In this document: positions 10,257-43,606 of the stretch, piece after piece
Position numbering within the stretch: the first letter of the stretch is position 1
Layout of the letters: every line of letters begins with the position of its first letter
Source of the DNA: Polyangiales bacterium
Lineage (GTDB): Bacteria; Myxococcota_A; Polyangia; Polyangiales; Houyiibacteriaceae
Length of the DNA: 43,606 nucleotides
Assembly: GCA_048550275.1 (NCBI GenBank)
Contig: JBLYYU010000248.1
Location: forward strand, 1-43,606
Direction of reading: 5' to 3'
Notes under the pieces: generated by a model
Told to the model about the DNA's origin: nothing
Seen by the model: the letters and a program-made list of their open reading frames with translations, nothing else
Database searches by the model: none
Translations under genes and position numbers: made by a program

Positions 10257-11462
10257 ATGGACGAAGCGCCGATTTACATGGACCACCACGCTACGACGCC
10301 AGTCGACCCGCGCGTGCTGGCAGAGATGCTGCCGTTCTTCACCGAACGCTTCGGCAACGCGGCCAGTCGCTCTCACGGGCACGGCAAGGTGGCCCGGGAC
10401 GCGGCGGAGCGCGGGAGAGCCCAGCTCGCCACCCTGCTCGGCTCGAAGCCCGAAGAGCTGGTGTTCACTTCGGGAGCCACGGAGAGCGACAATCTTGCCA
10501 TCCGCGGTGTAGCGGAGGCGCGCAAACGGGATGGCAAGCACATCGTCACGGTCCGGACCGAGCACAGAGCCGTGCTGGACAGCTGTGCTGAGCTCGAGCG
10601 TCTTGGCTGGCGAGTCACCCGACTCGACGTGGACGAAGACGGGATGGTGTCCCCCGAAGCCGTCGCGGCGGCACTCACCGACGAGACCGTCTTGCTGAGC
10701 GTGATGCTCGCGAACAACGAGATCGGCGTCGTACAGCGCCTGGCCGATATAGGTTCGGTCGCGAAGGAGCGCGGCGTAACGTTCCACTGCGATGCCGCAC
10801 AAGGACTCGGCTACGTCCCCTTCTCGATCGACGAGATGCACATCGATCTGGCAAGTGTTTCGGCGCACAAGATGTACGGCCCAAAAGGCGTGGGGGCGCT
10901 CTACGTTCGTGAAGCACTTCTGTCGCAGCAAATCCCTAGCCCCCAGATGTACGGGGGCGGCCACGAACGCGGCCTGCGCTCAGGTACGCTCAATGTTCCG
11001 GGCATCGTCGGCTTCGGCGCTGCCGCGGCGATCATGAAGAACGAAGGCGCTCAGGAAGCGGAGCGCATCCAAGCCCTCAGGGACCGATTGAAGGACCGGC
11101 TGCTCTCAGTCGTCCAAGAAGCCCACCTGAACGGAGCCGCCGCACCACGGCACCCTGGAAATCTCAATCTCTCCTTTGGGTACGTCGACGGGGCAGGACT
11201 GCTGCTCGAGCTCGGCAGGGCCGTGTCGGTGTCGAGCGGAGCGGCCTGCAGCACCGCAACGCCCGGACCGAGCTATGTGCTCGAAGCGATGGGCATTCCG
11301 AAGAGTTGGAGTACTGCCTCGGTCCGCTTCGGACTCGGGCGCGACACCACGGTGGAAGAGGTCGAAGCGGTTGGAGACGCCGTGATCGAGACCGTCGCCC
11401 GACTCCGTGAGCGATCGCCCCTCTGGAATCGCAGGGAGAGCGGAAAGCCAGTCGATTGGTGA
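10257..11462 (+). CDS. Cysteine desulfurase, NifS/IscS-like (class V aminotransferase, group I)
   Basis: IYMDHHATTPVDPRV, SVSAHKMYGPKGVGALYVR (PLP Lys) and SSGAACSTATPGPSYVLEAMG (active-site Cys loop). Confidence 0.85.
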   Translation: MDEAPIYMDHHATTPVDPRVLAEMLPFFTERFGNAASRSHGHGKVARDAAERGRAQLATLLGSKPEELVFTSGATESDNLAIRGVAEARKRDGKHIVTVRTEHRAVLDSCAELERLGWRVTRLDVDEDGMVSPEAVAAALTDETVLLSVMLANNEIGVVQRLADIGSVAKERGVTFHCDAAQGLGYVPFSIDEMHIDLASVSAHKMYGPKGVGALYVREALLSQQIPSPQMYGGGHERGLRSGTLNVPGIVGFGAAAAIMKNEGAQEAERIQALRDRLKDRLLSVVQEAHLNGAAAPRHPGNLNLSFGYVDGAGLLLELGRAVSVSSGAACSTATPGPSYVLEAMGIPKSWSTASVRFGLGRDTTVEEVEAVGDAVIETVARLRERSPLWNRRESGKPVDW

Positions 11463-11512
11463 GGGAAGCTCCGAGCTGGCGGAAGCGGGCCCCGCGCCTT
11501 AGATAGAGGCAG

Positions 11513-11857
11513 ATGAGCGAAGCACAGAGCATAACCCTGACGCCACGAGCGGTGGAGATGGCCAAACAGAAGGTCGCCGACGCGGACGCGCCCGTCGAAG
11601 GGTTGCGACTGGGCGTCAAGGGTGGGGGCTGCTCGGGCTACTACTACGTCTATGACTTCGCGAAGAAGATCCGGCCGACTAAGGATTTGGTGTTCGAGTT
11701 CGACGGGCTCAAAGTCATCGTCGACAATCGGAGTATCGAATTTCTGGCGGGCGCAACGCTCGACTGGGAGCAGAGCCTGATGAGCTACGGCTTCAAGTGG
11801 AAGAACCCGAACGCAACGGGCGACTGCGGCTGTGGCGAGTCCTTCGAGGTCGACTAA
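11513..11857 (+). CDS. Iron-sulfur cluster insertion/A-type carrier protein (HesB/IscA/ErpA family)
   Basis: GVKGGGCSGYYY...NPNATGDCGCGESFEV gives the three conserved Cys of A-type carriers. It lies 50 bp downstream of the desulfurase. Confidence 0.85.
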   Translation: MSEAQSITLTPRAVEMAKQKVADADAPVEGLRLGVKGGGCSGYYYVYDFAKKIRPTKDLVFEFDGLKVIVDNRSIEFLAGATLDWEQSLMSYGFKWKNPNATGDCGCGESFEVD

Positions 11858-32478: not shown

Positions 32479-33780
32479 ATGACCCAGCCCCAAGCTCCTC
32501 AGCTCCGCCGTTCCCTCGGGTTTTGGGCTCTGGTTTTCTATGGCGTAGGCGACATCCTGGGCGCCGGAATCTATGCCCTCGTCGGCAAGGTGGCTGGGGT
32601 CGCGGGAAGCGCTAGCTGGGCGGCGTTCGGCGTCGCTCTTTTCGTAGCCGGCCTGACCGCCCTCACCTACGCCGAGCTCGGCGGCCGCTTCCCGAGGAGC
32701 GCCGGCGAGTCCTTCTTCACCGAGCAGGCGTTCGGGCGCCCCGGCCTGGCCCTTCTCGTCGGCTGGGTGGTTCTTTGTTCGGGCATTCTGTCCTTGGCGA
32801 CCGTTTCGGTCGCGTTCGGCGGCTACATGAGCGGGCTCCTCCCCGGGCTCCCTCCATCGGTCACCATCGTCGGGATTCTACTCCTGCTCGCTGCGATCAA
32901 CTTCCGAGGCATGCGAGAGTCGTCCACCACCAACATCATCGCCACCATGGTCGAGCTAACCGGTCTATTGATCGTGATTGTGGCAGGTGCCCTCTTCCTC
33001 GGACGCGACTCCGCTTCTGGCATCGCCCAAACCATCGAGAGCAGTCGCAGCGTCGGGTGGACAGAGATCGCCAGCGGGGCCGCGCTAGGGTTTTTCGCCT
33101 TCATCGGGTTCGAAGACATGGTCAACGTCGCCGAAGAGGTGAAGGACCCGGAGCGCAACATGCCGCGCGCGATTCTGATTGCACTTTGCGTCACGGGCGT
33201 CGTCTATTTGCTGGTAGTGCTCGTCGCGACGAGCGTCGTTGCGCCCGCCGTGCTTGCCGACTCAGAAGCGCCACTCCTCTCGGTCGTTCAACGAGCCACG
33301 GACGTCGTCCCCGATCGTCTCTTCGCGACGATCGCGCTCTTCGCAGTTGCCAACACGGGCTTGCTCAACTTCATCATGGGCTCGCGCCTGATCTACGGCA
33401 TGTCGCGACAAGGACTTCTACCGGCGGCGCTCGGCAAGGTTCACCCTAGACGGCGCACTCCGCACCTCGCCATCCTCGCGGTTCTAGGCGTTGCCCTGGT
33501 TCTGGCGCTCTCGGGCACGCTCTCCTACCTCGCCGGCACGACGAGCCTGCTCCTGCTTCTGGTCTTCTTCACGGTCAACGTCTCGCTCGCAACAATCAAG
33601 CGGCGCGACCGGGGCGCGATACGCACATTTTGCGCGCCTCGACTCGTGCCGATCGCGGGTGCGCTGAGCTGTCTTGGCTTGATGCCATTCGTGCCCCGAG
33701 GTTCGCTCCTGACGGCCGCAACCATTCTCACGCTAGGCGCGGGCCTGGTGGCCCATCGCGGCCGGACGCGAGCCGCCTAG
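32479..33780 (+). CDS. APC-superfamily amino acid permease
   Basis: The ATG at 32479 gives MTQPQAPQLRRSLGFWALVFYGVGDILGAGIYALVGKVAG, the typical APC TM1 with its GxG unwound motif. About 12 hydrophobic segments follow. Confidence 0.8.
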   Translation: MTQPQAPQLRRSLGFWALVFYGVGDILGAGIYALVGKVAGVAGSASWAAFGVALFVAGLTALTYAELGGRFPRSAGESFFTEQAFGRPGLALLVGWVVLCSGILSLATVSVAFGGYMSGLLPGLPPSVTIVGILLLLAAINFRGMRESSTTNIIATMVELTGLLIVIVAGALFLGRDSASGIAQTIESSRSVGWTEIASGAALGFFAFIGFEDMVNVAEEVKDPERNMPRAILIALCVTGVVYLLVVLVATSVVAPAVLADSEAPLLSVVQRATDVVPDRLFATIALFAVANTGLLNFIMGSRLIYGMSRQGLLPAALGKVHPRRRTPHLAILAVLGVALVLALSGTLSYLAGTTSLLLLLVFFTVNVSLATIKRRDRGAIRTFCAPRLVPIAGALSCLGLMPFVPRGSLLTAATILTLGAGLVAHRGRTRAA

Positions 33781-34052
33781 TCGTCTTCGGGCTTGGGCGC
33801 TGCGTGCGGAATCGAGGGCCGAAATTCGGCCTTGCGAAGGTCGATAAACACGATGACCAGGAACAGGGCGAATGATAGCGTGCCAATACCTTGGCCGACC
33901 GACATCGCCATCATCACGGGAATCCAACCCTGGTCGAAAAGCGACCAGCTCATCAGCGCCAGGCCGATCAGCCCGAGCCAGCAAGCCCAGACCATGAGCT
34001 TCGAGCGCGACGCCGTGTCGAGGAACTTCGTGATTCGGGCTTTCGCGTTCAT
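33777..34052 (-). CDS. Small two-TM membrane protein, coupled to the NapC/NirT-like cytochrome gene
   Basis: 91 aa with two hydrophobic helices (LMVWACWLGLIGLALMSWSLF, IGTLSFALFLVIVFI). The ATG overlaps the upstream stop (ATGA at 34049-34052). Confidence 0.45.
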   Translation of the reverse strand: MNAKARITKFLDTASRSKLMVWACWLGLIGLALMSWSLFDQGWIPVMMAMSVGQGIGTLSFALFLVIVFIDLRKAEFRPSIPHAAPKPEDD

Positions 34053-34726
34053 GTCCCCTCCGGTGCTGGCGTTTGGAGCGCCGAATGTGCCTCACCATCG
34101 GATGGAGTTTCCTCTTCCGGCTTGCTAAAAGGATGCGCGTAGCCATGGCAACCCGCACTCACGCAGCTCGTCTCGCCGGTGCGCAGGTCGTCGAGAAGCC
34201 CGACGTGGTCCTGTGTGCCGTTCCAGATGCTCCCGGTCGTGCTGTGGCACTGCATGCAGTTGTCGTTCTTGAAGGGTCGCACGATGTGAATCTTCTCGAT
34301 GACCTCGTCGCGATCGTAGAACATCCACTCGCTGAGGAACTTGTAGACGTGGCCCATGCCGCCGATCTTGGTCATGGCGTAGCCGAACATCCCGTAGTCT
34401 TTGTGGCAGACGTAACAGCTCTTCTTGCCGAACTTGTGGCTGCGCGAATGAATGGCAGCGAGGGACTCGCTCTCCGAATCGTTCGCGTCCTCGATCCACA
34501 TGTCCATGGTGTGGCAACTGCCGCAGAACCCCTGACGCTCGGTCGCTGCGAGGCCCTCCATGTTGCCGATCATTGCGACCATGATCGGCAGCACGCCGAC
34601 GCCGAGCACCATCACCGACTTGCCCGCGGCGTCGAGTGGCGGCCGGCGGATCAAGTAGTAGAGCATGATGCCTGCCGCAACGATTGCGCAGGCGAGGCCG
34701 ATCCAGGAAAGAGGCGATACGTGCAT
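34049..34726 (-). CDS. Membrane-anchored NapC/NirT/NrfH-like multiheme cytochrome c (3 CXXCH plus 1 CX4CH)
   Basis: Two N-terminal hydrophobic helices, then FCGSCHTM (the C-x-SCH-x-M context typical of NapC/NrfH heme 1), CYVCH, CMQCH and CVSAGCH. Confidence 0.75.
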   Translation of the reverse strand: MHVSPLSWIGLACAIVAAGIMLYYLIRRPPLDAAGKSVMVLGVGVLPIMVAMIGNMEGLAATERQGFCGSCHTMDMWIEDANDSESESLAAIHSRSHKFGKKSCYVCHKDYGMFGYAMTKIGGMGHVYKFLSEWMFYDRDEVIEKIHIVRPFKNDNCMQCHSTTGSIWNGTQDHVGLLDDLRTGETSCVSAGCHGYAHPFSKPEEETPSDGEAHSALQTPAPEGT

Positions 34727-34732
34727 GGTTCA

Positions 34733-36058
34733 GTGGGCTCACCGCGGCGACGCGCGGAGCAGCATGACCATGATCCAGGATCGGGTCGCAATGCAAGCGA
34801 GAAGATCGGCCACGCAGCCCGCTGGGCGCTCGGACTCGCAGCCGCAATTGCCTTGACGTTTGCTGGGACGGTTCTGACGCCGCCTTCCACCGCTGGCGCC
34901 CAGCCTCACAGTGTGGGCGCGGAGCTTTGGGGGCAGCTCGACCCCAATGTCGGACTGATCGTCATAGAAGGATCGACGAAGAAGTATCCGTACGTCGACG
35001 CCGAAGCACTCGTCTGGGGTGGCGCGGGTTCTCCCCAATACGGCCTGCGTGGCAATGAGGCAACCTTCGAAGCACTCGTGGTTTCGCTCCGAGTGCGTGA
35101 TCCGAAAGGGATCAGCGATGCACGGCTAGGGCGGTTCATTCTCGGAACCGGCGCTGTCCGGGCCCAGCACATCGACGGCGGGCACCTCACACTGCGCGCG
35201 CCGTCGAAGACCCACTTCGAGGTGTTTGGCGGAGTGCCGGTAGACGGCAATCTCGACGGGCGCAGGTACGACTGGATTGCCGGCGGTCGAATCTCGCAAG
35301 GGCTCGGAAAGATCGGCGTGATCGGCGGCTCTTACTACAACCGCTACAACGCCGGACAGCGTTCAGACGAAGAAGTAGGTGTGGACTTCTCCTTGCGCGC
35401 AGCGAGCTGGCTAGACATGGCCGCCAAGTTCTCGTGGGAGATTGTGAACCCGGGTCTCGCAGAGGTGCTCGCCACCATTTCGTCGCAGACCAACAATCGG
35501 AAATTCCGAGGAGAGCTCTTCGCGAGCAAACGCAATCCCACGCGCTTCCTGCAGCAGACTTCGCTGTTCACGGTCCTGGGAGACCTCGGGACCCTGAAAA
35601 CCGGTGCGAATCTTTTCTGGCGTGCGGCGCCGCGGCTCGACCTCACGATGGAAGGAGCGGCACAGCAGGCCTCGAACCAATGGGGCTGGAGCGGCTATCT
35701 TCGAGGGCTCTTACGAACCGACGATGAGGGCAAGGGCAGCGTCCTTGGCGAGCTGCGACGGCAACAGGTCGCCGACTCCCGGTGGACGGGAATCCGACTC
35801 GCTTCGGTGATTCAGCTCTTCGAAGACGTGCGCCAAACCGTCGGGCTGATGCCCGAATTCGAGGTCATCATTCCGGACGACCGGAACTCCGTCACCGGGC
35901 GGGCCTGGCCATGGGGTCGGCTCGCGCTGCGCTATCAGCACGAGTCTGGATGGACCTTCGCGGCCGCGGCGGAGGCAAGCGCCAACCAAGTTCAGCGGCT
36001 CGACGTCCGAGGGCTCGCTCGAGTCGCCTATCAGCGCACATGGCACGGGAAGAAATGA
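34733..36058 (+). CDS. Exported protein, candidate outer-membrane beta-barrel (porin-like partner of the downstream cytochromes)
   Basis: Signal-peptide-like ARWALGLAAAIALTFAGTVLTPPSTAGA. Many short amphipathic stretches rich in Gly/Tyr/Trp/Arg (IGVIGGSYYNRYN, VGVDFSLRAA, AKFSWEIV, WGWSGYLRGLLR, GRLALRYQHE, WTFAAAAEAS). The C-terminus is LARVAYQRTW-HGKK. There is no ATG, so the start is GTG at 34733 or 34721. The stop overlaps the next ATG (ATGA). Confidence 0.45.
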   Translation: MGSPRRRAEQHDHDPGSGRNASEKIGHAARWALGLAAAIALTFAGTVLTPPSTAGAQPHSVGAELWGQLDPNVGLIVIEGSTKKYPYVDAEALVWGGAGSPQYGLRGNEATFEALVVSLRVRDPKGISDARLGRFILGTGAVRAQHIDGGHLTLRAPSKTHFEVFGGVPVDGNLDGRRYDWIAGGRISQGLGKIGVIGGSYYNRYNAGQRSDEEVGVDFSLRAASWLDMAAKFSWEIVNPGLAEVLATISSQTNNRKFRGELFASKRNPTRFLQQTSLFTVLGDLGTLKTGANLFWRAAPRLDLTMEGAAQQASNQWGWSGYLRGLLRTDDEGKGSVLGELRRQQVADSRWTGIRLASVIQLFEDVRQTVGLMPEFEVIIPDDRNSVTGRAWPWGRLALRYQHESGWTFAAAAEASANQVQRLDVRGLARVAYQRTWHGKK

Positions 36059-37113
36059 AACAGATCGTCGCACTCACATTCCTGGTGCTGCTCGCGGGTT
36101 CTGCCGGGGCCTGCGCGAAGATGCTGGGCCTCGAGCAAGAGAAAGAAAGCTCGGCGTTCGAGCACCGCGCACACGTTGTCGAAGGGATTAACTGCCTCGA
36201 GTGTCACGCCGGGATCCAGGAAGCGGGCGATACCGGACCGCTGCACATGCCTTCGACGGCTGATTGCGTCTCATGCCATGAGGAGCCGCATGACCCGAAC
36301 ACCTGCTCGGACTGTCACGGCCGGGCACGCAACCGGCACGCCGCCGAGATGGCTCGCAAGCACCTGCGTTTCTCGCACGTCACGCACAACGAAGAAGGCG
36401 CGGGCGACTGCGTGCGCTGCCACGTGAACGTCACGACGGATGCGGACTACGTTCGCACGAAGCACCCGACTTGCCTGAGCTGCCATGCGCACAAGGGCCA
36501 GTGGGACACTCGCGACTGCGGTGGCTGTCACGTCGATCTTCCGAGCGAAATGGCGCGGCCCGAAAGCCACGTAGTTCACGACGGCAACTTCCTTCGCGAG
36601 CACGGCGTGCAAGCAAACGCCCAAGGTGACCTGTGCACGGCCTGTCACACGCAACGCGAATGTGCCTCCTGTCACGGCGTGACGGTTCCGACCATCCCGT
36701 CGAGGTTCCGCTTCGACGCCCCGATGCGCGACTCGATGCACCGAGCAAACTTCATCTCGGTCCACGACATGCAGGCCGCCGCTGACCCGGCCGCCTGCAT
36801 CACCTGTCACAGCGAGCTCTTCTGCGTCGATTGCCATACCCGCCTGGGCATATCGGGCCTCAATGCATCTCGCGGAAACCCGCATCCGCCAGGCTGGTCC
36901 GGTCCTCCCGGCGCCCCCAACACACACGGGCGGGCCGCAAGGCTCGACCCGCTGTCTTGCGCGAGCTGTCACGGCGGCGCAGGCGAAACCCTCTGCGTGA
37001 GCTGCCACCAGGTCGGCGGACCAGGCGGTAACCCCCATCCCACTGGCTTCAACAGCCGACTCAGCAAGGCCAACGACCTTCCTTGCAGGCTCTGCCACAT
37101 CGGAGGCCTATGA
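36055..37113 (+). CDS. 13-heme c-type cytochrome, probable lipoprotein (c3/c7-like repeats)
   Basis: MKQIVALTFLVLLAGSAGAC (signal plus Cys). 13 CXXCH motifs in 352 aa. There are recurrent F-x-H-x2-H segments (FEHRAHV, FSHVTHN) as in c7/c3 modules. Confidence 0.85.
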   Translation: MKQIVALTFLVLLAGSAGACAKMLGLEQEKESSAFEHRAHVVEGINCLECHAGIQEAGDTGPLHMPSTADCVSCHEEPHDPNTCSDCHGRARNRHAAEMARKHLRFSHVTHNEEGAGDCVRCHVNVTTDADYVRTKHPTCLSCHAHKGQWDTRDCGGCHVDLPSEMARPESHVVHDGNFLREHGVQANAQGDLCTACHTQRECASCHGVTVPTIPSRFRFDAPMRDSMHRANFISVHDMQAAADPAACITCHSELFCVDCHTRLGISGLNASRGNPHPPGWSGPPGAPNTHGRAARLDPLSCASCHGGAGETLCVSCHQVGGPGGNPHPTGFNSRLSKANDLPCRLCHIGGL

Positions 37114-38657
37114 AGCGGGCCGCGATCCTGGCCTTGGTGTTCTTGGCGCTCGGATTCGTGGCCGGGTACGTCTTCGCGGCATTCACAACCGACGTTGTTC
37201 CGACGATCACGGAGCAGCGCGCAGCAGGTCCCACCCGTGAGGTCTCGGTCGACTGGCACGTCGACAAGTTCTCGCCCGGGCATTCTCAGCACGTCGTAAA
37301 CCACGCCCTTCAGTGTAACGATTGCCATGACCCCGCCCGGTCGGACTTCAAAGAGGTCGACATCGGCGTCTGCACGAACTGCCACCTCGAGCAGACGTCT
37401 CACCCCCATCTCGACCAAGATGGCGAAATCACCGAGTGCCTCACCTGCCACTCCTTCAAGTTCAACGCTGAGCCGGACAGCCCCTGGGACTGCGTGCGCT
37501 GCCACGGGCCTTTCGATACGCCGACTCACACGGGCCTCGCGATGCACGATCAAATCGCCTGCGCGAACTGCCACCATCCGCATAAGCCGACATCTCAGAC
37601 GGCCGCAGAGTGCAACGACTGCCACGAAGCACTCAAGGTTCAGCACGGGCGCCCCAAGCTCAGCGGTACCTGCGCGGATTGCCACGGCGGCCACAAGCTC
37701 GCCGCGGAGGCCCCGGCCTGCATGGAGTGCCATGCGAACGAGAAACCCCGGGTGCCTAAGTCAGCGGTGTTCGCAGACGGCCACGATGCCTGCGTCGACT
37801 GTCACGAGCCGCACGCGTTCTCGGCAGCGAGCGCGCTTCAGTGTGGGAGTTGTCATCGTCGCAAGCCGGTCTTTGCCCAGAACACCGCGCGAGAACACCG
37901 GGATTGCAGTAGCTGCCACGAGCCCCACGCCGTTCGCGCTGCCGGCGACCGAAGCTGCAAGGGTTGCCACGAAGACATCGCATCGACCCATGTCGCCGAG
38001 GGCAAGTCGGACTGCGTCTCCTGCCACGATCCGCATCCGAAGCGTCGGGCGCAGATCGCGCTGCAGTGTTCGAGTTGCCACGAAGAGGCGAGCTCGGAAC
38101 GCGCCTTCCACGCAGCGAAATCCGTGTGCACCGACTGCCACACGCCGCACGGCTTCGATCTCAGCGGCGCGACGGAGCCAGCATTTTGCGCCTCCTGCCA
38201 CCAGCAGCAGGTGCGGCTCACCAAGCGCATTTCCGACCATTCGAGCTGCGCCGACTGCCACGAGGGCACGTCGCACGCGCTAGAGGACCCGGTGGCCTGC
38301 GCGAGCTGCCACGAGGAGCTCGAACAGTCGAGCCCGGAGGGCCACCGAGACTGCGCCTCCTGCCACGAGCCTCACGGCGGCGCGATGAACGCCGGTGCCT
38401 GCACGAGCTGTCATGAGAACGCCAGCCTCCCCGGCCTGCACCGTATTCCTGGCGACCCCCAAAGTACCGGCCACTCCGACTGCTCGACCTGCCACAACGC
38501 GCACGACGCCCAAGTCCGCGCCGACCGCGCCGCGTGCATGGAGTGCCACGACGACATCGCCAACCACGAACCAGACGCAAAGATCTGCACGGGATGTCAC
38601 ACGTTCATCAGCGGGAAGCCAAAAAGCGCACTGACGCCGAGGGCACGGCCGCGGTAG
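37110..38657 (+). CDS. 23-heme c-type cytochrome with an N-terminal signal/anchor helix (paired-CXXCH repeat type)
   Basis: MKRAAILALVFLALGFVAGYVFA. 23 CXXCH motifs in 515 aa. The unit CxxCH-(E/D/T/N)-(P/A)-H-x9-13-CxxCH repeats. GGAGG lies 5 nt upstream, and the ATG overlaps the upstream stop (ATGA). Confidence 0.85.
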   Translation: MKRAAILALVFLALGFVAGYVFAAFTTDVVPTITEQRAAGPTREVSVDWHVDKFSPGHSQHVVNHALQCNDCHDPARSDFKEVDIGVCTNCHLEQTSHPHLDQDGEITECLTCHSFKFNAEPDSPWDCVRCHGPFDTPTHTGLAMHDQIACANCHHPHKPTSQTAAECNDCHEALKVQHGRPKLSGTCADCHGGHKLAAEAPACMECHANEKPRVPKSAVFADGHDACVDCHEPHAFSAASALQCGSCHRRKPVFAQNTAREHRDCSSCHEPHAVRAAGDRSCKGCHEDIASTHVAEGKSDCVSCHDPHPKRRAQIALQCSSCHEEASSERAFHAAKSVCTDCHTPHGFDLSGATEPAFCASCHQQQVRLTKRISDHSSCADCHEGTSHALEDPVACASCHEELEQSSPEGHRDCASCHEPHGGAMNAGACTSCHENASLPGLHRIPGDPQSTGHSDCSTCHNAHDAQVRADRAACMECHDDIANHEPDAKICTGCHTFISGKPKSALTPRARPR

Positions 38658-38663
38658 GCTGTC

Positions 38664-38720
38664 GGGCCGCGAAAAACGGCGCGACGCGGGGTTCCCGTAT
38701 CGCGCTCTTTTCCGCGCCCC
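38664..38720. terminator. Bidirectional intrinsic terminator hairpin between convergent cytochrome operons
   Basis: The arms gggccgcgaaaaacggcgcga / tcgcgctcttttccgcgcccc pair at 17 of 21 positions plus one G-U. The inner stem GCGCGA/TCGCGC is followed by a U-run on either strand. It fills the 64-bp gap between the stops at 38657 (+) and 38722 (-). Confidence 0.55.
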
Positions 38721-38721
38721 G

Positions 38722-39780
38722 CTAGAACGCGTCTACTCGTCCGTTGATGTGTGGCGCTTCAATCGTAAGCAGCGTGCCTTCGGCATTGATCCCCCGGTGG
38801 CAGCTATTGCACGAGATGGTGGAGTGTCCGGGAGGTGGATTCTGGTGGCAGGCGCCACAGTCGAGGTCCAACCCCTCTTCGTCCCAGGCCACGTCCGGTG
38901 TCGTGCCGCCGCGGACATGGCACGTCGTCGTGCAGTCGCGGGTTTCGAAGTCGTAGCTCGCTCCCTCGGCCCACGCCGGCTGGAAAACCACGTCGACCTC
39001 GCCGTTGCCGTGCGTGCCGACGAGCATCGAGTAGTCCTGGCCGAAGTGGCAGGTCTGGCAATCGAGGCCGCTCGGATTGTTGGCCGATGGCTCGGCGTGA
39101 TCCGCATGCGCGTAGCCAGGTTGCGGGGGGCGGAAGTAACACAGATCCCTTGGTGGATAGGCCCGCTCCCCGTCTCCGTGGCAGGTACCGCAAGCCATCA
39201 CCCCGCCGGGAAGGCTGTGACAGTCGGTGCAATCTGCAGCTCCGGGGGGCGGTTTGATGACCGGCTCGACTGCTTCAGGCGAACCCCGGTGGCAAAGACC
39301 GCAGGCATCCGAACGCGCTGGATCGACGATCGGCTGCCAGTCAGTCGCTCTCAGGTAGGCGCCATGCCAGTCGTCGGCGCGTGGGTCGTTCCACTGCCCG
39401 GGATGCGTGCTGTCGGTCGTGGGGACGGCGCCATCGGTTACCCAGGTTGTTAGCCCACGCCTCTCGTCCTCGGCCAGGAGGTCGGCGTGATCGGGACGCT
39501 CGAGCACGGCAAGGATTGGCGCCGTCTGATCTGACGGCAGCGTAGCGGGCTGACCGTCTGGATCGGGTATGCAGCGAATCGTCTCCAGATAGTCTTCGAC
39601 GCTGTACCCCGCGGACGGCGTCCCGCCGCCGTGGCATTCGACGCAGCGCTGTTCGAGAATGGGATTCACATCCGCAAAGACGAGCGGCGGTTCTTCCCGA
39701 TCACGTGCTTCGTTGCAGCCGAGAAGTGCAACGGTGGCGCAGAGCAACCCGACAAGCCGAACGCTCGTCCGACCGATCAT
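38722..39780 (-). CDS. Multiheme cytochrome c lipoprotein (7 CXXCH plus 1 CX3CH)
   Basis: The ATG at 39780 gives MIGRTSVRLVGLLCATVALLGC (lipobox). Motifs are CVECH, CGLCH, CTDCH, CGTCH, CQTCH, CTTTCH, CGACH and CNSCH. The tail CTTTCH...W...CGACHQNPPPGH...CNSCH resembles the Geobacter/myxobacterial CxxxxCH...CXXCH domain. The ATG overlaps the upstream stop (ATGA). Confidence 0.8.
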   Translation of the reverse strand: MIGRTSVRLVGLLCATVALLGCNEARDREEPPLVFADVNPILEQRCVECHGGGTPSAGYSVEDYLETIRCIPDPDGQPATLPSDQTAPILAVLERPDHADLLAEDERRGLTTWVTDGAVPTTDSTHPGQWNDPRADDWHGAYLRATDWQPIVDPARSDACGLCHRGSPEAVEPVIKPPPGAADCTDCHSLPGGVMACGTCHGDGERAYPPRDLCYFRPPQPGYAHADHAEPSANNPSGLDCQTCHFGQDYSMLVGTHGNGEVDVVFQPAWAEGASYDFETRDCTTTCHVRGGTTPDVAWDEEGLDLDCGACHQNPPPGHSTISCNSCHRGINAEGTLLTIEAPHINGRVDAF

Positions 39781-41864
39781 GGCGCCGGCGGGTTGGGCAG
39801 TAAGTTGGCATGGCAGGTGCCGCATTCGTTGGTAAACGCGACAGGCTGCTCGAGGGGCTCACCGACATCCCGCCAGGGGGTCATCGTCATCCGATGCGTG
39901 GCGATGTCGTTCCAGAAGTACTGGACATCCAGGGTCACGCCCGAGCCTGGATCGAGGAGGGCGGGCACAGCGGCTCCGGAGCGGGCGGTCGGTACGAGAT
40001 GGCAGTCGGCGCAGAGAAGCCCGAAGCCCGAGTGCACTGAATTGCCCGTGGCGGACTCGACGTGACTATCGAGGTTGTCCGGCTCGGCCAAACCACTGTG
40101 GCATGTGGTGCAAAGCGCATTCGGATTCCCCGAGGTATCCATGGCCGCGATGTCATCGTCGTTGGCGTGCGGGCTGTGGCAATTGGTACAAGAGACGAGT
40201 CGAGTGCCGTTTCGATAGTGTCGCGTCTGAATGTGTCCCGAATACTGTTGGTAGTGAGCCTTCTCGTCCCCGGAATCAAAGAAGGCGGCTGGCGCACCGC
40301 CGACCCGGTTGGTGTAGTTCGCCGCAAAGTCTGCGCGCCGGATTCCCGGAGGGGGCATCTCGTTTTCATCCGATAGCGGCAGCCCCGTTTCGCCGGCGCC
40401 GATGCCAAGAGGCCGCGAATGGCAGCTGCCACAGAGCGCGGCTTGGCGGCCTGGGGTCAACAGCCCGGGAGAGACCATGAAACTACCGTTGGGGCTTGGA
40501 TTCAGGTGATCGGAGCCAGCGCCGTGACAGGATTCACATCCCACGTTGAGGAGCTCGAGCCGACCGTCGCCGTCGTAATCGAACGCGCCGCCCGAATCGA
40601 CCACAGCGCTCGCAGACCAGCCGTCCATCTCGCTGCCGCTCAGCGCGTAGCCCGTGAAATGGCAGCCTGCGCAGTTGTTGTCGAAGGAATCAGCGGACGA
40701 CGGCGCGAGATCCGAATCCCGAAGCATGTCGGTGTCGAAGTCGAACCAGAGGTCGGAGCGGTAGTCGCGCCAGGGCCAGTCATCGGAGGTCCCGTTGCCA
40801 GGAAGGCTGCCGTTGTCGAAGTCACCCTCGTAGTTGTACTGAAGGGGCAACAAGAAGTAGCTGAAGCTTTCGTCCGCATTGCTTCGGCGCGTCAGGTACT
40901 GTTGGGCCCCCAATGCGCCGCCGTACGTGAGGACCACATCGTAGCGACGCGTCGGCTGCCCGTTTATGAGATTCTCCATTTGAATGAAGTAGGCGCCAAT
41001 CACTCCAAGTGGCGTGTTCGTGTCCCTTCTCAAATCGATTCGGAACTTCGCGCTCGGACCGGGATTCTGAACTTGCACCTTGCAGTTGGACGGATCTTCA
41101 TGCGTCGAGGCCGCGGCATCGCAGTCGTAGTAGTAGAGGGACGTGCCGGCCTCGAATCCTTCGAGGCCATCATCGAAGCTCGGCCAGGGCTCGACGTCCT
41201 GCAAAATCGAGCGCGAGCCTGGGACTTGAAGCCCCACGTTGTGCGCTGTTCGTGACGTGCTGTGAAGCGCATGGCACCCGAGGCACGTAGACGAACCGAC
41301 GTAGGTGGCGTTCTCGCTCGGCTGAGCGCTCACGCGGATGTCCATCTGCATGCCAATCAGGGATGCCGTGTCAAACGCGACGCTGCTGCTGTCGCCGCCA
41401 GGCAAGTGCAGACCGTCGCCATCGGCGGGGGCCCAGACGATAAAGTGCTCTCCCTCGGGTAGCGTCACAAATCGGTACTCGCCGGAGTCATCGACGGCGG
41501 CCTGCTCGTAGTTCGTGCCGTTGACGTCGAGCAGATCTTCGATTGGCTCGTCGACTTCCAGCATCGCTGTCGCTTCCGGCGACAAGAAGAGATCGATTTC
41601 TGTCTCCGACAGGTCTTCGACGTCGCTTGCTGGTACGAGATACACGGTGCCGCCCTGCACCGGCGTCATGTTCGGCTCCATGACCCTGCCGACGAGCCCC
41701 TCTAGCTCCGGATCGATCTCCTCGCCGGGCGTCTCCCCTGGTGGACCTGGCTCGCCCGGCGGCCCCTGCGGTCCGGGTTCGCCGGTGTCGCCCGTGCAGG
41801 CAACCATGACGAAAGAGGCACACACGCAAAACGAAAGCCAAGAAAACCAGCGGATGGAAGTCAT
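39777..41864 (-). CDS. Octaheme cytochrome c lipoprotein with a collagen-like G-X-Y tether and an N-terminal beta-sandwich-like domain
   Basis: The ATG at 41864 gives MTSIRWFSWLSFCVCASFVMVAC (lipobox); the track's 41882 is a TTG. Then come GDT-GEP-GPQ-GPP-GEP-GPP-GET, and GRVMEPNMTPVQGGTVYLV...DDSGEYRFVTLPEGEHFIVW (CarboxypepD_reg-like). There are 8 CXXCH motifs (CLGCH, CAGCH, CESCH, CGSCH, CTNCH, CTTCH, CADCH, CGTCH). Confidence 0.8.
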   Translation of the reverse strand: MTSIRWFSWLSFCVCASFVMVACTGDTGEPGPQGPPGEPGPPGETPGEEIDPELEGLVGRVMEPNMTPVQGGTVYLVPASDVEDLSETEIDLFLSPEATAMLEVDEPIEDLLDVNGTNYEQAAVDDSGEYRFVTLPEGEHFIVWAPADGDGLHLPGGDSSSVAFDTASLIGMQMDIRVSAQPSENATYVGSSTCLGCHALHSTSRTAHNVGLQVPGSRSILQDVEPWPSFDDGLEGFEAGTSLYYYDCDAAASTHEDPSNCKVQVQNPGPSAKFRIDLRRDTNTPLGVIGAYFIQMENLINGQPTRRYDVVLTYGGALGAQQYLTRRSNADESFSYFLLPLQYNYEGDFDNGSLPGNGTSDDWPWRDYRSDLWFDFDTDMLRDSDLAPSSADSFDNNCAGCHFTGYALSGSEMDGWSASAVVDSGGAFDYDGDGRLELLNVGCESCHGAGSDHLNPSPNGSFMVSPGLLTPGRQAALCGSCHSRPLGIGAGETGLPLSDENEMPPPGIRRADFAANYTNRVGGAPAAFFDSGDEKAHYQQYSGHIQTRHYRNGTRLVSCTNCHSPHANDDDIAAMDTSGNPNALCTTCHSGLAEPDNLDSHVESATGNSVHSGFGLLCADCHLVPTARSGAAVPALLDPGSGVTLDVQYFWNDIATHRMTMTPWRDVGEPLEQPVAFTNECGTCHANLLPNPPAP

Positions 41865-41961
41865 CCTGCCGATAATATGCAACCGGGGCGCGCCTTCAAG
41901 CGAAGACGTGCCCCGGACTGCTGTTTCTGGGCTCTGGTGGCCCTACGTGACCCGCGGGTCG

Positions 41962-43606
41962 CTACGGCCGAGCAATGCTAGGCGAGCCGCCCATCGCCTC
42001 GATCGAATCGACGAGAAGCTGCTTGATGTAGGCCCCGTTGTGGATGTAGCCGCCTGGATCCTTGTCCGCGACGACGAAGTTGTAGGCCGCCGTCAGCATG
42101 TCGAAGTCGAAGTCCAGGTACCGGTTCGGGTAGATCGCCGGCACACCAGCCTTGAACCAGTACGGGTAGGAGCCGCCGTCATACTGCACCGGCGAGTCCT
42201 TGGGAAGCCCCGTCGCGGGGTTGCCCGTATTGGCGTACGCCTGGATCGCCGCCAGCAGCTCGCCCTTCAACGTCTGGATGTCGCTGAAGTTGTTGGTGGG
42301 CGAGCCGCTCATCGTCGGGAAGGTGCTCCCCACGTGGCAGGTATTGCAGTCCGCCACCTTCGGAAGGAAGGTGTGCTTCTTGGCCTCGTCTTCGTCCGCG
42401 TTCATGTGGCAGCCGATGCAATCGACCAGCCCGACCGCGTCTGGCAGGTTCGTGTGAACGCCGAACGGGTTCAGACCGCGGTACGTCTCTCCTTCATACT
42501 GGTACCCACCTCGTACGTCGTTGCCGAAGAGCGTTGCCCCCGCGGCGTAGTAGTGGATGTTGATGAAGCTGTAAGAGTCGTAGACGACGTTCTCGCCGTT
42601 TGGCGTTGCGTCGTTCACGTCGTCCGTCGAGGACCGACCCGGGTGACAGCTCATGCAGATGTTGCTGTTGGTCTCGAGGTTGGCGGTCTCGCCCGACGGG
42701 AACTCTACGTCGTCGAGGGCGGGGTTCGTCGTCAGATCGTCCCATCGCGTCTCGGAGTTCGAGTAGAGATTGAACTGATTGTGACACGAGGTGCAGTCGA
42801 CCGTGGACAAGGGAAGGTGCGCGGTCGTCGATTGCCCCTGGGCAAACTCGGCGAAGCCGTTGGTGTTGTGGCACTTCGAGCATGCGCCCGAGACCTCACC
42901 GTCCTCGTCCCAGTGACGGAACACTTCCGAGGCCGCGTCGCCGTGACCGCTGATCTGCCACTGCTGCGTCGGCGTTGCCGTCCCGATGGCCGAGCCGTTC
43001 GCTGCCAGATCGCCGCGACCGATTACACCGACAGTGGGCGTGCCTCCGAGATCGACGATCGAATCGTAAGCGATTTGCTGCAGGTACGTACCATTGTGGA
43101 TGAACCCAGCGGGGTCCTTCTGGGTGACCTGGTAGTTGTAAGCAGCTGCGAGAAGAGCGTCATCGAACTCATCGTACCGGTTCGGGTACGCAGCGGGTCC
43201 GCCTTCCTTGAAGAAGTAGGGATACGCTTCGGCATAGAAGATGCCGGTTCCAATCACGTTGGTCGCATAGGACTGAATCTGCGCGTAGAGCTCGGGGACG
43301 AGAGCCTCGATGTTGGCGAGGCTCTGTGCGGGCGAGCCTTGAAGGGTCTCGAAGCTGTCGCCGCCGTGGCAGCCAACGCAGGAATCCAGAGCTGGTTCCC
43401 AGGTATGCGGTTCGCCGGCTTCGGCGTTCTGCATGTGGCAGCCCTCACAGGTGGAGAAGTCGTCGGGATGCGAAGGGAAGGTGTTCCTCGGCCGGTAGTC
43501 GAAGCCCTCGTATTCGTACCCCGCCGTCGATTCGCCGCCGTATAGAGAGGCCGCAGCGGCGTAGTAGTGGATGTTGATGAACGTGTGCTGGTCGTTCGCG
43601 TCAATC
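41962..43606 (-). CDS. Multiheme cytochrome c with an internal tandem repeat, 5'-truncated by the window edge
   Basis: The reading frame is open from the window end. My translation upstream of the track's first Met is IDANDQHTFINIHYYAAAASLYGGESTAGYEYEGFDYRPRNTFPSHPDDFSTCEGCHM. Seven CXXCH motifs are visible. The block INIHYYAA...CxGCHM...CxxCH...YPY(F/W)FK...YPNRY...DP(A/G)G(F/Y)IHNG occurs twice. Confidence 0.75.
   Translation of the reverse strand, partial: IDANDQHTFINIHYYAAAASLYGGESTAGYEYEGFDYRPRNTFPSHPDDFSTCEGCHMQNAEAGEPHTWEPALDSCVGCHGGDSFETLQGSPAQSLANIEALVPELYAQIQSYATNVIGTGIFYAEAYPYFFKEGGPAAYPNRYDEFDDALLAAAYNYQVTQKDPAGFIHNGTYLQQIAYDSIVDLGGTPTVGVIGRGDLAANGSAIGTATPTQQWQISGHGDAASEVFRHWDEDGEVSGACSKCHNTNGFAEFAQGQSTTAHLPLSTVDCTSCHNQFNLYSNSETRWDDLTTNPALDDVEFPSGETANLETNSNICMSCHPGRSSTDDVNDATPNGENVVYDSYSFINIHYYAAGATLFGNDVRGGYQYEGETYRGLNPFGVHTNLPDAVGLVDCIGCHMNADEDEAKKHTFLPKVADCNTCHVGSTFPTMSGSPTNNFSDIQTLKGELLAAIQAYANTGNPATGLPKDSPVQYDGGSYPYWFKAGVPAIYPNRYLDFDFDMLTAAYNFVVADKDPGGYIHNGAYIKQLLVDSIEAMGGSPSIARP

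Follow-up and report, generated by a model that had tools for sequence, protein, structure and literature searches.

Positions 33777 to 43606 of a 43,606-nucleotide stretch of DNA from a Polyangiales bacterium (contig JBLYYU010000248.1 of assembly GCA_048550275.1; the whole stretch is called the window below) form an island of multiheme cytochrome genes that probably encodes a porin-cytochrome conduit for carrying electrons across the cell envelope. The conduit would be of a kind specific to Myxococcota and would most likely serve outward extracellular respiration. At its center lie three consecutive plus-strand open reading frames (ORFs), for a predicted outer membrane β-barrel (ORF1), a 13-heme lipoprotein (ORF2), and a 23-heme cytochrome (ORF3), which are joined by ATGA stop/start overlaps at 36055-36058 and 37110-37113. 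A first-pass annotation, made from the sequence alone, had described this coupled trio and proposed that it is a porin-cytochrome module. Our analysis supports a conduit of this type, but the unit extends beyond the trio: it also takes in a divergent NrfH-type gene, its partner with two transmembrane (TM) helices, and convergent lipoprotein cytochrome genes, whose conservation around the trio sets the limits of the island. The island holds at least 62 heme motifs and four ATGA junctions, two on the minus strand (34049-34052 and 39777-39780) in addition to the two within the trio. The case is built on gene structure, heme motifs, the predicted fold of the barrel, and strict synteny.

The coupled barrel and cytochrome genes

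ORF1 (34733-36058, plus strand) starts with GTG and encodes 441 amino acids, with no cysteine and no CXXCH motif. A hydrophobic segment of the signal type at residues ~31 to 50 is followed by AGA/QPH, and the mature protein, of ~385 residues, begins at Gln57. At the C terminus, the last predicted strand ends in ...VAYQRTW, followed by HGKK, which places the aromatic residue 5 from the end. The absence of heme motifs, the signal-like N terminus, and the VAYQRTW segment had all been noted in the first-pass annotation and were found as described. The position of the start is uncertain: the GTG at 34733 and the ATG of the divergent minus-strand gene at 34726 are 6 bp apart, leaving no intergenic space for a promoter. 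As called, ORF1 has a 30-residue hydrophilic leader ahead of the hydrophobic region of the signal, while its homologs in other species begin just before that region; the mature protein is unaffected by the choice. We note that an in-frame ATC at 34805 would yield a canonical signal peptide.

AlphaFold2 modeling of ORF1 with a 35-sequence alignment (pLDDT 81.5, pTM 0.67) produced an N-terminal helix, corresponding to the signal peptide, and then 22 β-strands arranged as a barrel, not a soluble fold. All of the top 50 Foldseek matches in the PDB were outer membrane barrels, with E values down to 3e-10 and identities of at most 12%; these neighbors include the FimD/PapC ushers, AlgE, OprD/Occ, and OmpM1, the best being the 24-strand ushers, which pass folded proteins. 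Strands account for 262 of the 385 mature residues (68%), and the model shows short loops only, with neither a plug nor a long constriction loop. The even/odd alternation of hydrophobicity along the strands was 2.11, compared to 1.41 ± 0.24 for shuffled sequences (maximum, 2.23). By standard barrel geometry, 22 strands would give a C-alpha diameter of ~40 Å, and a plug-less barrel of this size with short loops needs a partner to fill its opening. ORF1 matched no Pfam (E ≤ 0.1) or NCBIfam family. RecA-fusion entries, the only matches in a profile search of PDB sequences, were rejected as spurious because they lack a significant stretch. On the strength of the model, the Foldseek neighbors, and the strand amphipathicity, ORF1 is predicted to be an outer membrane β-barrel.

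ORF2 (36055-37113, plus strand) encodes a 352-residue c-type cytochrome with 13 CXXCH motifs. Twenty-six of its 27 cysteines fall in heme motifs, and the only other one, Cys20, lies in a lipobox (SAGA-C), in agreement with the first-pass description. Thirteen CXXCH motifs were present in 117 of 120 homologs, and the lipobox cysteine was kept in all 15 N termini displayed out of these 120. An alignment across the three tiers of relatives defined below shows all 13 heme motifs to be invariant down to 31 to 35% identity, with the lipobox cysteine retained in seven of its eight rows. Lipobox position +2 is alanine. In Myxococcus xanthus, a lysine at this position of lipoproteins is linked to retention at the inner membrane (PMC3222651). 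ORF2 is predicted to be a bacterial lipoprotein and carries alanine, not the retention-type lysine.

ORF3 (37110-38657, plus strand) encodes a 515-residue c-type cytochrome with 23 CXXCH motifs, which contain all of its 46 cysteines. As had been proposed, it starts with a Sec-type sequence, a 20-residue hydrophobic helix that may be a signal anchor or a long signal peptide. The remainder, in which Pfam Paired_CXXCH domains are recognized, is a string of two-heme units (CxxCH-x-PH ... CxxCH ...) with ~19 residues between motifs. The 23 CXXCH motifs and ~23 further histidines are invariant in 35 homologs, implying bis-His hemes throughout. Shuffling of each protein gave an expectation of 0.17 CXXCH motifs for ORF2 and 0.38 for ORF3, and the observed counts of 13 and 23 are beyond chance.

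With 22.4 residues per heme, ORF3 is denser in heme than MtrA. The ten hemes of MtrA are quoted as spanning ~80 to 100 Å (PMC5566968), in keeping with the MtrCAB structure. At the MtrA value of 8 to 9 Å per heme, the 23 hemes of ORF3 would reach ~190 Å, about the width of a periplasm. By this analogy, ORF3 is predicted to be a periplasm-spanning heme wire. Its AlphaFold2 model, also made with a 35-sequence alignment, was confident only for an N-terminal helix at residues 2 to 38 and was set aside for questions of shape and for fold searches (pLDDT 52, pTM 0.27).

Synteny and composition of the island

Word-indexed searches returned 292 homologs of ORF1, and those that carry names come from metagenome-assembled genomes (MAGs) of Myxococcota/Polyangiales. 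Among species-representative genomes, 188 stretches encode an ORF1 relative; we fetched 79 of these as loci, and the synteny counts given here use the evaluable loci among them. Nearly all of the 79 are assigned to Polyangiales, Polyangiaceae, Sandaracinaceae, Labilithrix, Myxococcales, or "delta proteobacterium," and the carriers come from soils, peat, permafrost, and sediments. An exhaustive profile search with the ORF1 family yielded 577 cluster representatives, including a remote tier of relatives. An ORF2 homolog directly follows the barrel gene in 73 of 73 loci, an ORF3 homolog comes next in 59 of 61, and a NapC/NrfH-type gene is the divergent upstream neighbor of the barrel gene in 72 of 73. 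Barrel homologs are accordingly found in the company of cytochrome genes, and ORF2 is the invariant partner. The 4-nt overlaps are kept as well in the near-tier loci, both between ORF1 and ORF2 (28/28) and between ORF2 and ORF3 (34/34).

Tiers were set by identity to ORF1: 56 to 90% (near), 37 to 43% (far), and ~20 to 25% (remote). Near-tier ORF3 proteins have 23 hemes and a helix of the MKRAAIL...A type. The far-tier homologs (P0201-P0240; loci L043-L079) have 27 hemes in ~600 residues and a lipobox in place of the hydrophobic helix, indicating that the tethering of the wire changed between the tiers. In the remote tier (L080, L082, L083, and L085, together with L106-L115, which are soil MAGs named "Myxococcales bacterium"), the barrel gene is always found beside genes for a 13-heme ORF2-like lipoprotein and a cytochrome of the type encoded by a 367-codon minus-strand ORF downstream of ORF3, although their order varies. 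No 23-heme gene was found beside the module on the remote-tier contigs, and there is usually no NrfH-like gene. This gene content suggests that the ancient core consists of the barrel and two lipoprotein cytochromes and that ORF3 and the divergent NrfH-like gene were added in Polyangiales. Of the originally proposed trio, then, the barrel and ORF2 form a conserved pair, but the third member at depth is the 367-aa cytochrome and not ORF3, which appears from these comparisons to be a lineage-specific addition of the Polyangiales tiers.

Several individual loci depart from the common layout. In soil "Myxococcales" MAGs, two copies of the remote-tier core were seen on different contigs (L106 and L110 in SMAG_U476; L108 and L113 in SMAG_U419). 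On the closed MAG chromosome of Myxococcales bin861 (CP070650.1; locus L042), the ORF2 homolog at 11314-11556 aligns over residues 1 to 81 only, and the locus has neither ORF3 nor the minus-strand cytochromes, possibly through a deletion or an assembly error. A query with one family member, P0484, found no genome relative. Our search of the literature library open to us found no description of this module, although Myxococcota have been mentioned as rich in novel multiheme clusters (10.1101/2022.03.26.485925).

The minus-strand gene at 34049-34726, divergent from ORF1, encodes a 225-residue tetraheme membrane cytochrome of the NrfH/NapC/NirT type. It has two N-terminal TM helices, three CXXCH motifs, and one CX4CH motif (CVSAGCH), and it scored 41 bits against PF03264 (cutoff, 24.1), with a weak match to TIGR03153 (NrfH). 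The PF03264 match, the membrane anchor, the four hemes, and a CXXCHxM motif, which is present in 64 of 65 homologs, all fit the NapC/NirT/NrfH family; the fourth motif is a variant, and this CX4CH was found in 65 of 65. We predict from these features that the protein is an inner membrane quinol dehydrogenase. It is coupled by the ATGA at 34049-34052 to a minus-strand gene at 33777-34052 for a 91-aa protein with two TM helices predicted from hydropathy, a single histidine, and no Pfam match. In all of the long related loci, near tier or far, a homolog of the 91-aa gene comes directly after the NrfH-like gene, with an ATGA overlap, making its product a candidate membrane partner of the quinol dehydrogenase.

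On the other side of the trio, the minus strand encodes three lipoprotein cytochromes. A 367-aa ORF (38722-39825) is convergent with ORF3, with 65 bp between the two stop codons, and contains seven CXXCH motifs and one CX3CH motif, a lipobox (LLGC), and a domain of the CxxxxCH/CxxCH type (TIGR01904; 41 bits, cutoff 27). The ATGA at 39777-39780 couples it to the gene upstream, and its likely start is Met16 (ATG at 39780), giving a 352-aa protein encoded by 38722-39780. Cytochromes of this type are kept near the module in the near and far tiers, and in L080, L082, L083, L085, and L106-L115 their genes directly adjoin the barrel gene or the ORF2-like gene. The coupled gene (39777-41864) encodes an 8-heme lipoprotein of ~695 aa, which matches multiheme families of Pfam and NCBIfam and has a lipobox (MVAC) and a collagen-like Pro/Gly linker after the lipid-bearing cysteine. 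This gene, whose product is a candidate surface or terminal cytochrome, is conserved in near-tier loci, and L082, of the remote tier, has a gene resembling it that converges on the module. The last gene (41962-43606) runs off the window, its frame being open to 43605, and what is present encodes the C-terminal part, of at least 547 aa with at least seven CXXCH motifs, of a large multiheme lipoprotein. It too is conserved in near-tier loci, and four of the five homologous reading frames examined (open frames of 733 to 926 codons) have a lipobox and a long Gly-rich linker.

In some near-tier genomes, genes for a cytochrome b (PF00033) and a 9-heme periplasmic cytochrome separate the ORF3 homolog from the gene of the 367-aa type (L005, 13863-16186; also L010, L021, and L029). 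This pair, which is missing from the window, is a further tie of the island to the quinone pool. Pfam and NCBIfam scans revealed no molybdopterin, FeS, or siroheme catalytic subunit within the island, and a promoter and terminator scan of 33600-39000 gave no signal exceeding that of shuffled sequence. The G+C content is 60 to 66% across the window, with no compositional break at the island. Positions 1 to 33780 hold ordinary chromosomal housekeeping genes, namely those for Suf Fe-S assembly, class V aminotransferases, DAHP synthase, a PEP-utilizing enzyme, a GH3 glycosidase, an acyl coenzyme A (acyl-CoA) dehydrogenase, an enolase superfamily enzyme, a PLP enzyme, and an amino acid permease.

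Relation to known porin-cytochrome systems

The closest analogue is PCC3, a system predicted in Sideroxydans, Leptothrix, and other Proteobacteria and found in genomes of Fe(II) oxidizers (He et al. 2017, PMC5566968); it is also covered in a Gallionellaceae pangenome study (10.1101/2023.01.26.525709). PCC3 comprises a porin, a 5-TM inner membrane protein, an extracellular cytochrome, and a periplasmic cytochrome, which has 21 to 27 hemes and for which a periplasm-spanning role has been proposed (PMC5566968; 10.1101/2023.01.26.525709). The inner membrane protein has ~300 aa and two WX3HX13H motifs, and the extracellular cytochrome has a median of 34 hemes (He et al. 2017, PMC5566968). Like PCC3, which is itself a genomic prediction only, the island groups an outer membrane barrel, a heme-dense periplasmic cytochrome, outer cytochromes, and an inner membrane redox protein. 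Both the heme number of the periplasmic cytochrome (23 in ORF3 and 27 in the far tier) and its low residue/heme ratio are like those of PCC3. The first-pass annotation had regarded the heme load, 36 hemes in the two partners, as far higher than in the porin-cytochrome complexes of Geobacter. The Geobacter counts given below agree with this, but the load is not unprecedented, given the 21 to 27 hemes of the PCC3 periplasmic cytochromes.

The barrel domains of the two systems may also be related. A profile of the ORF1 family aligned with the PCC3 porin barrel domain by hhalign with a probability score of 87.5 and an E value of 3.6e-6 over 210 columns, all within the N-terminal half of the barrel, whereas the controls, made by reversal and by 20 block shuffles, scored 16 to 24, with P values of at least 0.05. 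There is no full-length match, and the co-linear motifs are R-x-G-R-Q/F...D-G...F-G-G-x-P and R-x-x-P...T-S/N. These results point to a distant similarity between the ORF1 family and the PCC3 porin barrel. For the cytochromes, BLASTP with ORF3 found a PCC3 periplasmic cytochrome as its best match (62 bits). The corresponding profile match (E value of 9e-24) was discarded as a sign of specific homology, since the control comparison of ORF3 with the ORF2 family gave 2e-21; multiheme profile scores are driven by CXXCH and His and are not discriminating. The PCC3 loci used for the porin comparison came from a query with the ORF2-like protein of L080, which gave only generic multiheme matches, in Betaproteobacteria, at loci that proved to be PCC3. 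Three of these (L088, 7053-16577; L089, 4752-16718; L092, 6048-14294) have single ORFs with 83, 105, and 69 CXXCH motifs, respectively, adjoining a gene for a 24-heme periplasmic cytochrome and, in loci that extend far enough, such as L092, one for a ~900-aa porin with a Pro/Ala/Thr-rich linker.

The differences from PCC3 are substantial. In place of a 5-TM, diheme b-like inner membrane protein, the island encodes an NrfH-type tetraheme c cytochrome and the 91-aa 2-TM protein; its candidates for outer cytochromes have 13, 8, 8, and at least 7 hemes, in contrast to one giant protein of 10 to 105 hemes; the 441-aa ORF1 lacks the N-terminal extension of ~400 aa of the PCC3 porins; and the hosts are Myxococcota, not Proteobacteria.

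The Pcc complex of Geobacter sulfurreducens (OmbB-OmaB-OmcB) consists of a barrel with a predicted 18 to 22 strands, a periplasmic cytochrome, and an outer membrane lipoprotein cytochrome (Liu et al. 2014, PMC4282303), and the Ext clusters of Geobacter form a related comparison set (PMC12307469). The island matches the definition of Pcc (PMC4282303) by architecture, with adjacent genes for a barrel (22 strands here), a non-lipoprotein multiheme cytochrome, and a lipoprotein one. No Pfam or NCBIfam model is common to the proteins, and the GSU2203-family decaheme model gave 18.6 bits against a cutoff of 325. OmaB and OmcB carry 8 and 12 hemes, compared to 13 and 23 (plus 8) here; moreover, both deep-core cytochromes are lipoproteins here, and the island includes a gene for a predicted quinol dehydrogenase.

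With MtrCAB of Shewanella (PDB 6R2Q) and MtoAB/PioAB, the island would share a heme chain insulated by an outer membrane barrel and a lipoprotein cytochrome partner. The ORF3 profile matched the MtrA chain at an E value of 3.5e-11, although this cytochrome similarity is generic, and membership in the MtrA/DmsE family (TIGR03508) was rejected: ORF3 and ORF2 scored 43 and 21 bits against a cutoff of 192 and have 23 and 13 hemes, not 10. The identification of ORF1 as an MtrB/PioB homolog was likewise rejected, as it has 22 strands rather than 26 (26 to 28 across MtrB/PioB) and no PF11854 match, and the profile search of PDB sequences returned no MtrB chain (6R2Q). The product of 34049-34726 resembles NrfH, CymA, and NapC in exceeding the PF03264 threshold and in its NrfH-type first heme motif, CXXCHxM; it differs in its two N-terminal TM helices, conserved CX4CH, and 91-aa 2-TM partner, and it falls below the NrfH and NapC equivalog cutoffs. 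The module would resemble a PCC3- or Pcc-type conduit in its working, yet it is a member of neither family as defined, with PCC3 being a closer analogue than Geobacter Pcc.

Proposed route and direction of electron transfer

The localization of the proteins, the formation of a complex, the choice of the cytochrome that sits in the barrel, and the direction of flow are what we infer from these data. In the scheme that we favor, the NrfH-like quinol dehydrogenase would link the quinone pool to the conduit. ORF3, with its N-terminal helix as a tether in or close to the inner membrane, would then bridge the periplasm as a long, all-bis-His heme wire of ~190 Å; this is the most speculative step, the other steps being drawn from sequence and fold. 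ORF2 would be the intimate partner of the plug-less ORF1 barrel, and the two together would carry the heme chain through the outer membrane. At the cell surface, the electrons would be passed on to the 367-aa, ~695-aa, and large lipoprotein cytochromes, the last with flexible linkers. Flow would most likely be outward, with a heterotroph respiring anaerobically on insoluble or extracellular acceptors, e.g., humic matter or oxides of Fe(III) or Mn(IV).

Several observations weigh against this scheme. The barrel ends in ...RTWHGKK rather than in a terminal aromatic residue; a remote homolog, from L082, ends in ...YQFARMF. The closest solved sequence relative of the ORF2 N terminus is ActA of alternative complex III, and there is a weak match to QrcA. 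ActA and QrcA are both inner membrane-associated cytochromes, and this likeness is a caveat for the placement of ORF2 at the outer membrane. MtrA and OmaB are not lipoproteins, whereas the two core cytochromes are, and the topology may therefore differ from that of known conduits. The AlphaFold2 model of ORF3 is unreliable, leaving heme density alone to suggest an elongated shape, and the entry of any cytochrome into the barrel is putative. Finally, no isolate carrying the cluster was found, all of the retrieved loci being from MAGs.

The same hardware could instead run inward, in the manner proposed for both MtoAB/PioAB and PCC3 of iron oxidizers: electrons from outside the cell, supplied by Fe(II), Mn(II), minerals, reduced humics, or partner cells, would enter the quinone pool or reach acceptors in the periplasm. 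Multiheme chains are reversible in principle, the closest analogue is found in genomes of Fe(II) oxidizers (PMC5566968), the ORF1 barrel is distantly similar to the PCC3 porins, and NapC/CymA-type genes also accompany Mto clusters (10.1101/2023.01.26.525709). The hosts, however, are Polyangiales/Myxococcota MAGs from soils, peat, and sediments, and the other genes of the window are heterotroph housekeeping genes, with no marker of carbon fixation or other lithotrophy within its 43.6 kb. In addition, enzymes of the NrfH type normally oxidize menaquinol. On balance, we consider inward flow unlikely, at about one chance in a handful. Less likely still, in our estimation, is an arrangement that has no wire across the outer membrane, in which the NrfH-like protein, ORF3, and ORF2 make up a periplasmic or inner membrane-associated respiratory chain, which might, for example, reduce a soluble substrate or store electrons for it, and ORF1 is only the porin dedicated to admitting that substrate or else a factor that helps to assemble or secrete the lipoprotein cytochromes. 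Such a chain would suit the ActA-like N terminus of ORF2, and the topology and surface exposure of the two lipoproteins are themselves predictions. Yet the 22-strand barrel, in which strands make up 68% of the residues and which has neither a plug nor a long constriction loop, would be an open hole unless a partner filled it, and at all evolutionary distances sampled its gene stays strictly coupled to one for a cytochrome. The long collagen-like or Gly-rich tethers of the neighboring lipoprotein cytochromes are typical of surface display, and the lack of a catalytic subunit in the island also speaks against this arrangement. An outward-directed conduit is the reading that we retain.

To our knowledge, the route by which Gram-negative cells are known to respire minerals, electrodes, and humic matter is the porin-cytochrome conduit, and biochemical study has been confined to Mtr and one Geobacter complex. 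The island would add a conserved, sequence-distinct version of such a conduit that is widespread in uncultured Polyangiales/Myxococcota, which are not commonly listed as electroactive. Its predicted anatomy, with a quinol dehydrogenase, a 23-heme wire, and a compact barrel with two lipoprotein cytochromes, makes a shuttle-free trans-envelope circuit a testable idea, and the remote resemblance to PCC3 porins suggests that cytochrome-sheathing barrels may share an origin. Should the conduit reading be wrong, the locus would still be a well-defined family with a clear set of partners. We tentatively advance a broader proposal, which as a whole is more doubtful than the conduit itself: that Myxococcota possess their own family of cytochrome-sheathing barrels, with a core of a 22-strand barrel and two lipoprotein multiheme cytochromes and with common ancestry with the PCC3 porins, to which Polyangiales added an inner membrane-anchored wire of 23 to 27 hemes and an NrfH-type quinol dehydrogenase, resulting in a hard-wired chain of at least 48 hemes from the quinone pool to the surface with no diffusible periplasmic carrier. 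If this is true, a lineage seen so far as one of aerobic predators and polymer degraders would be an overlooked electroactive group that is widespread in soils and sediments.

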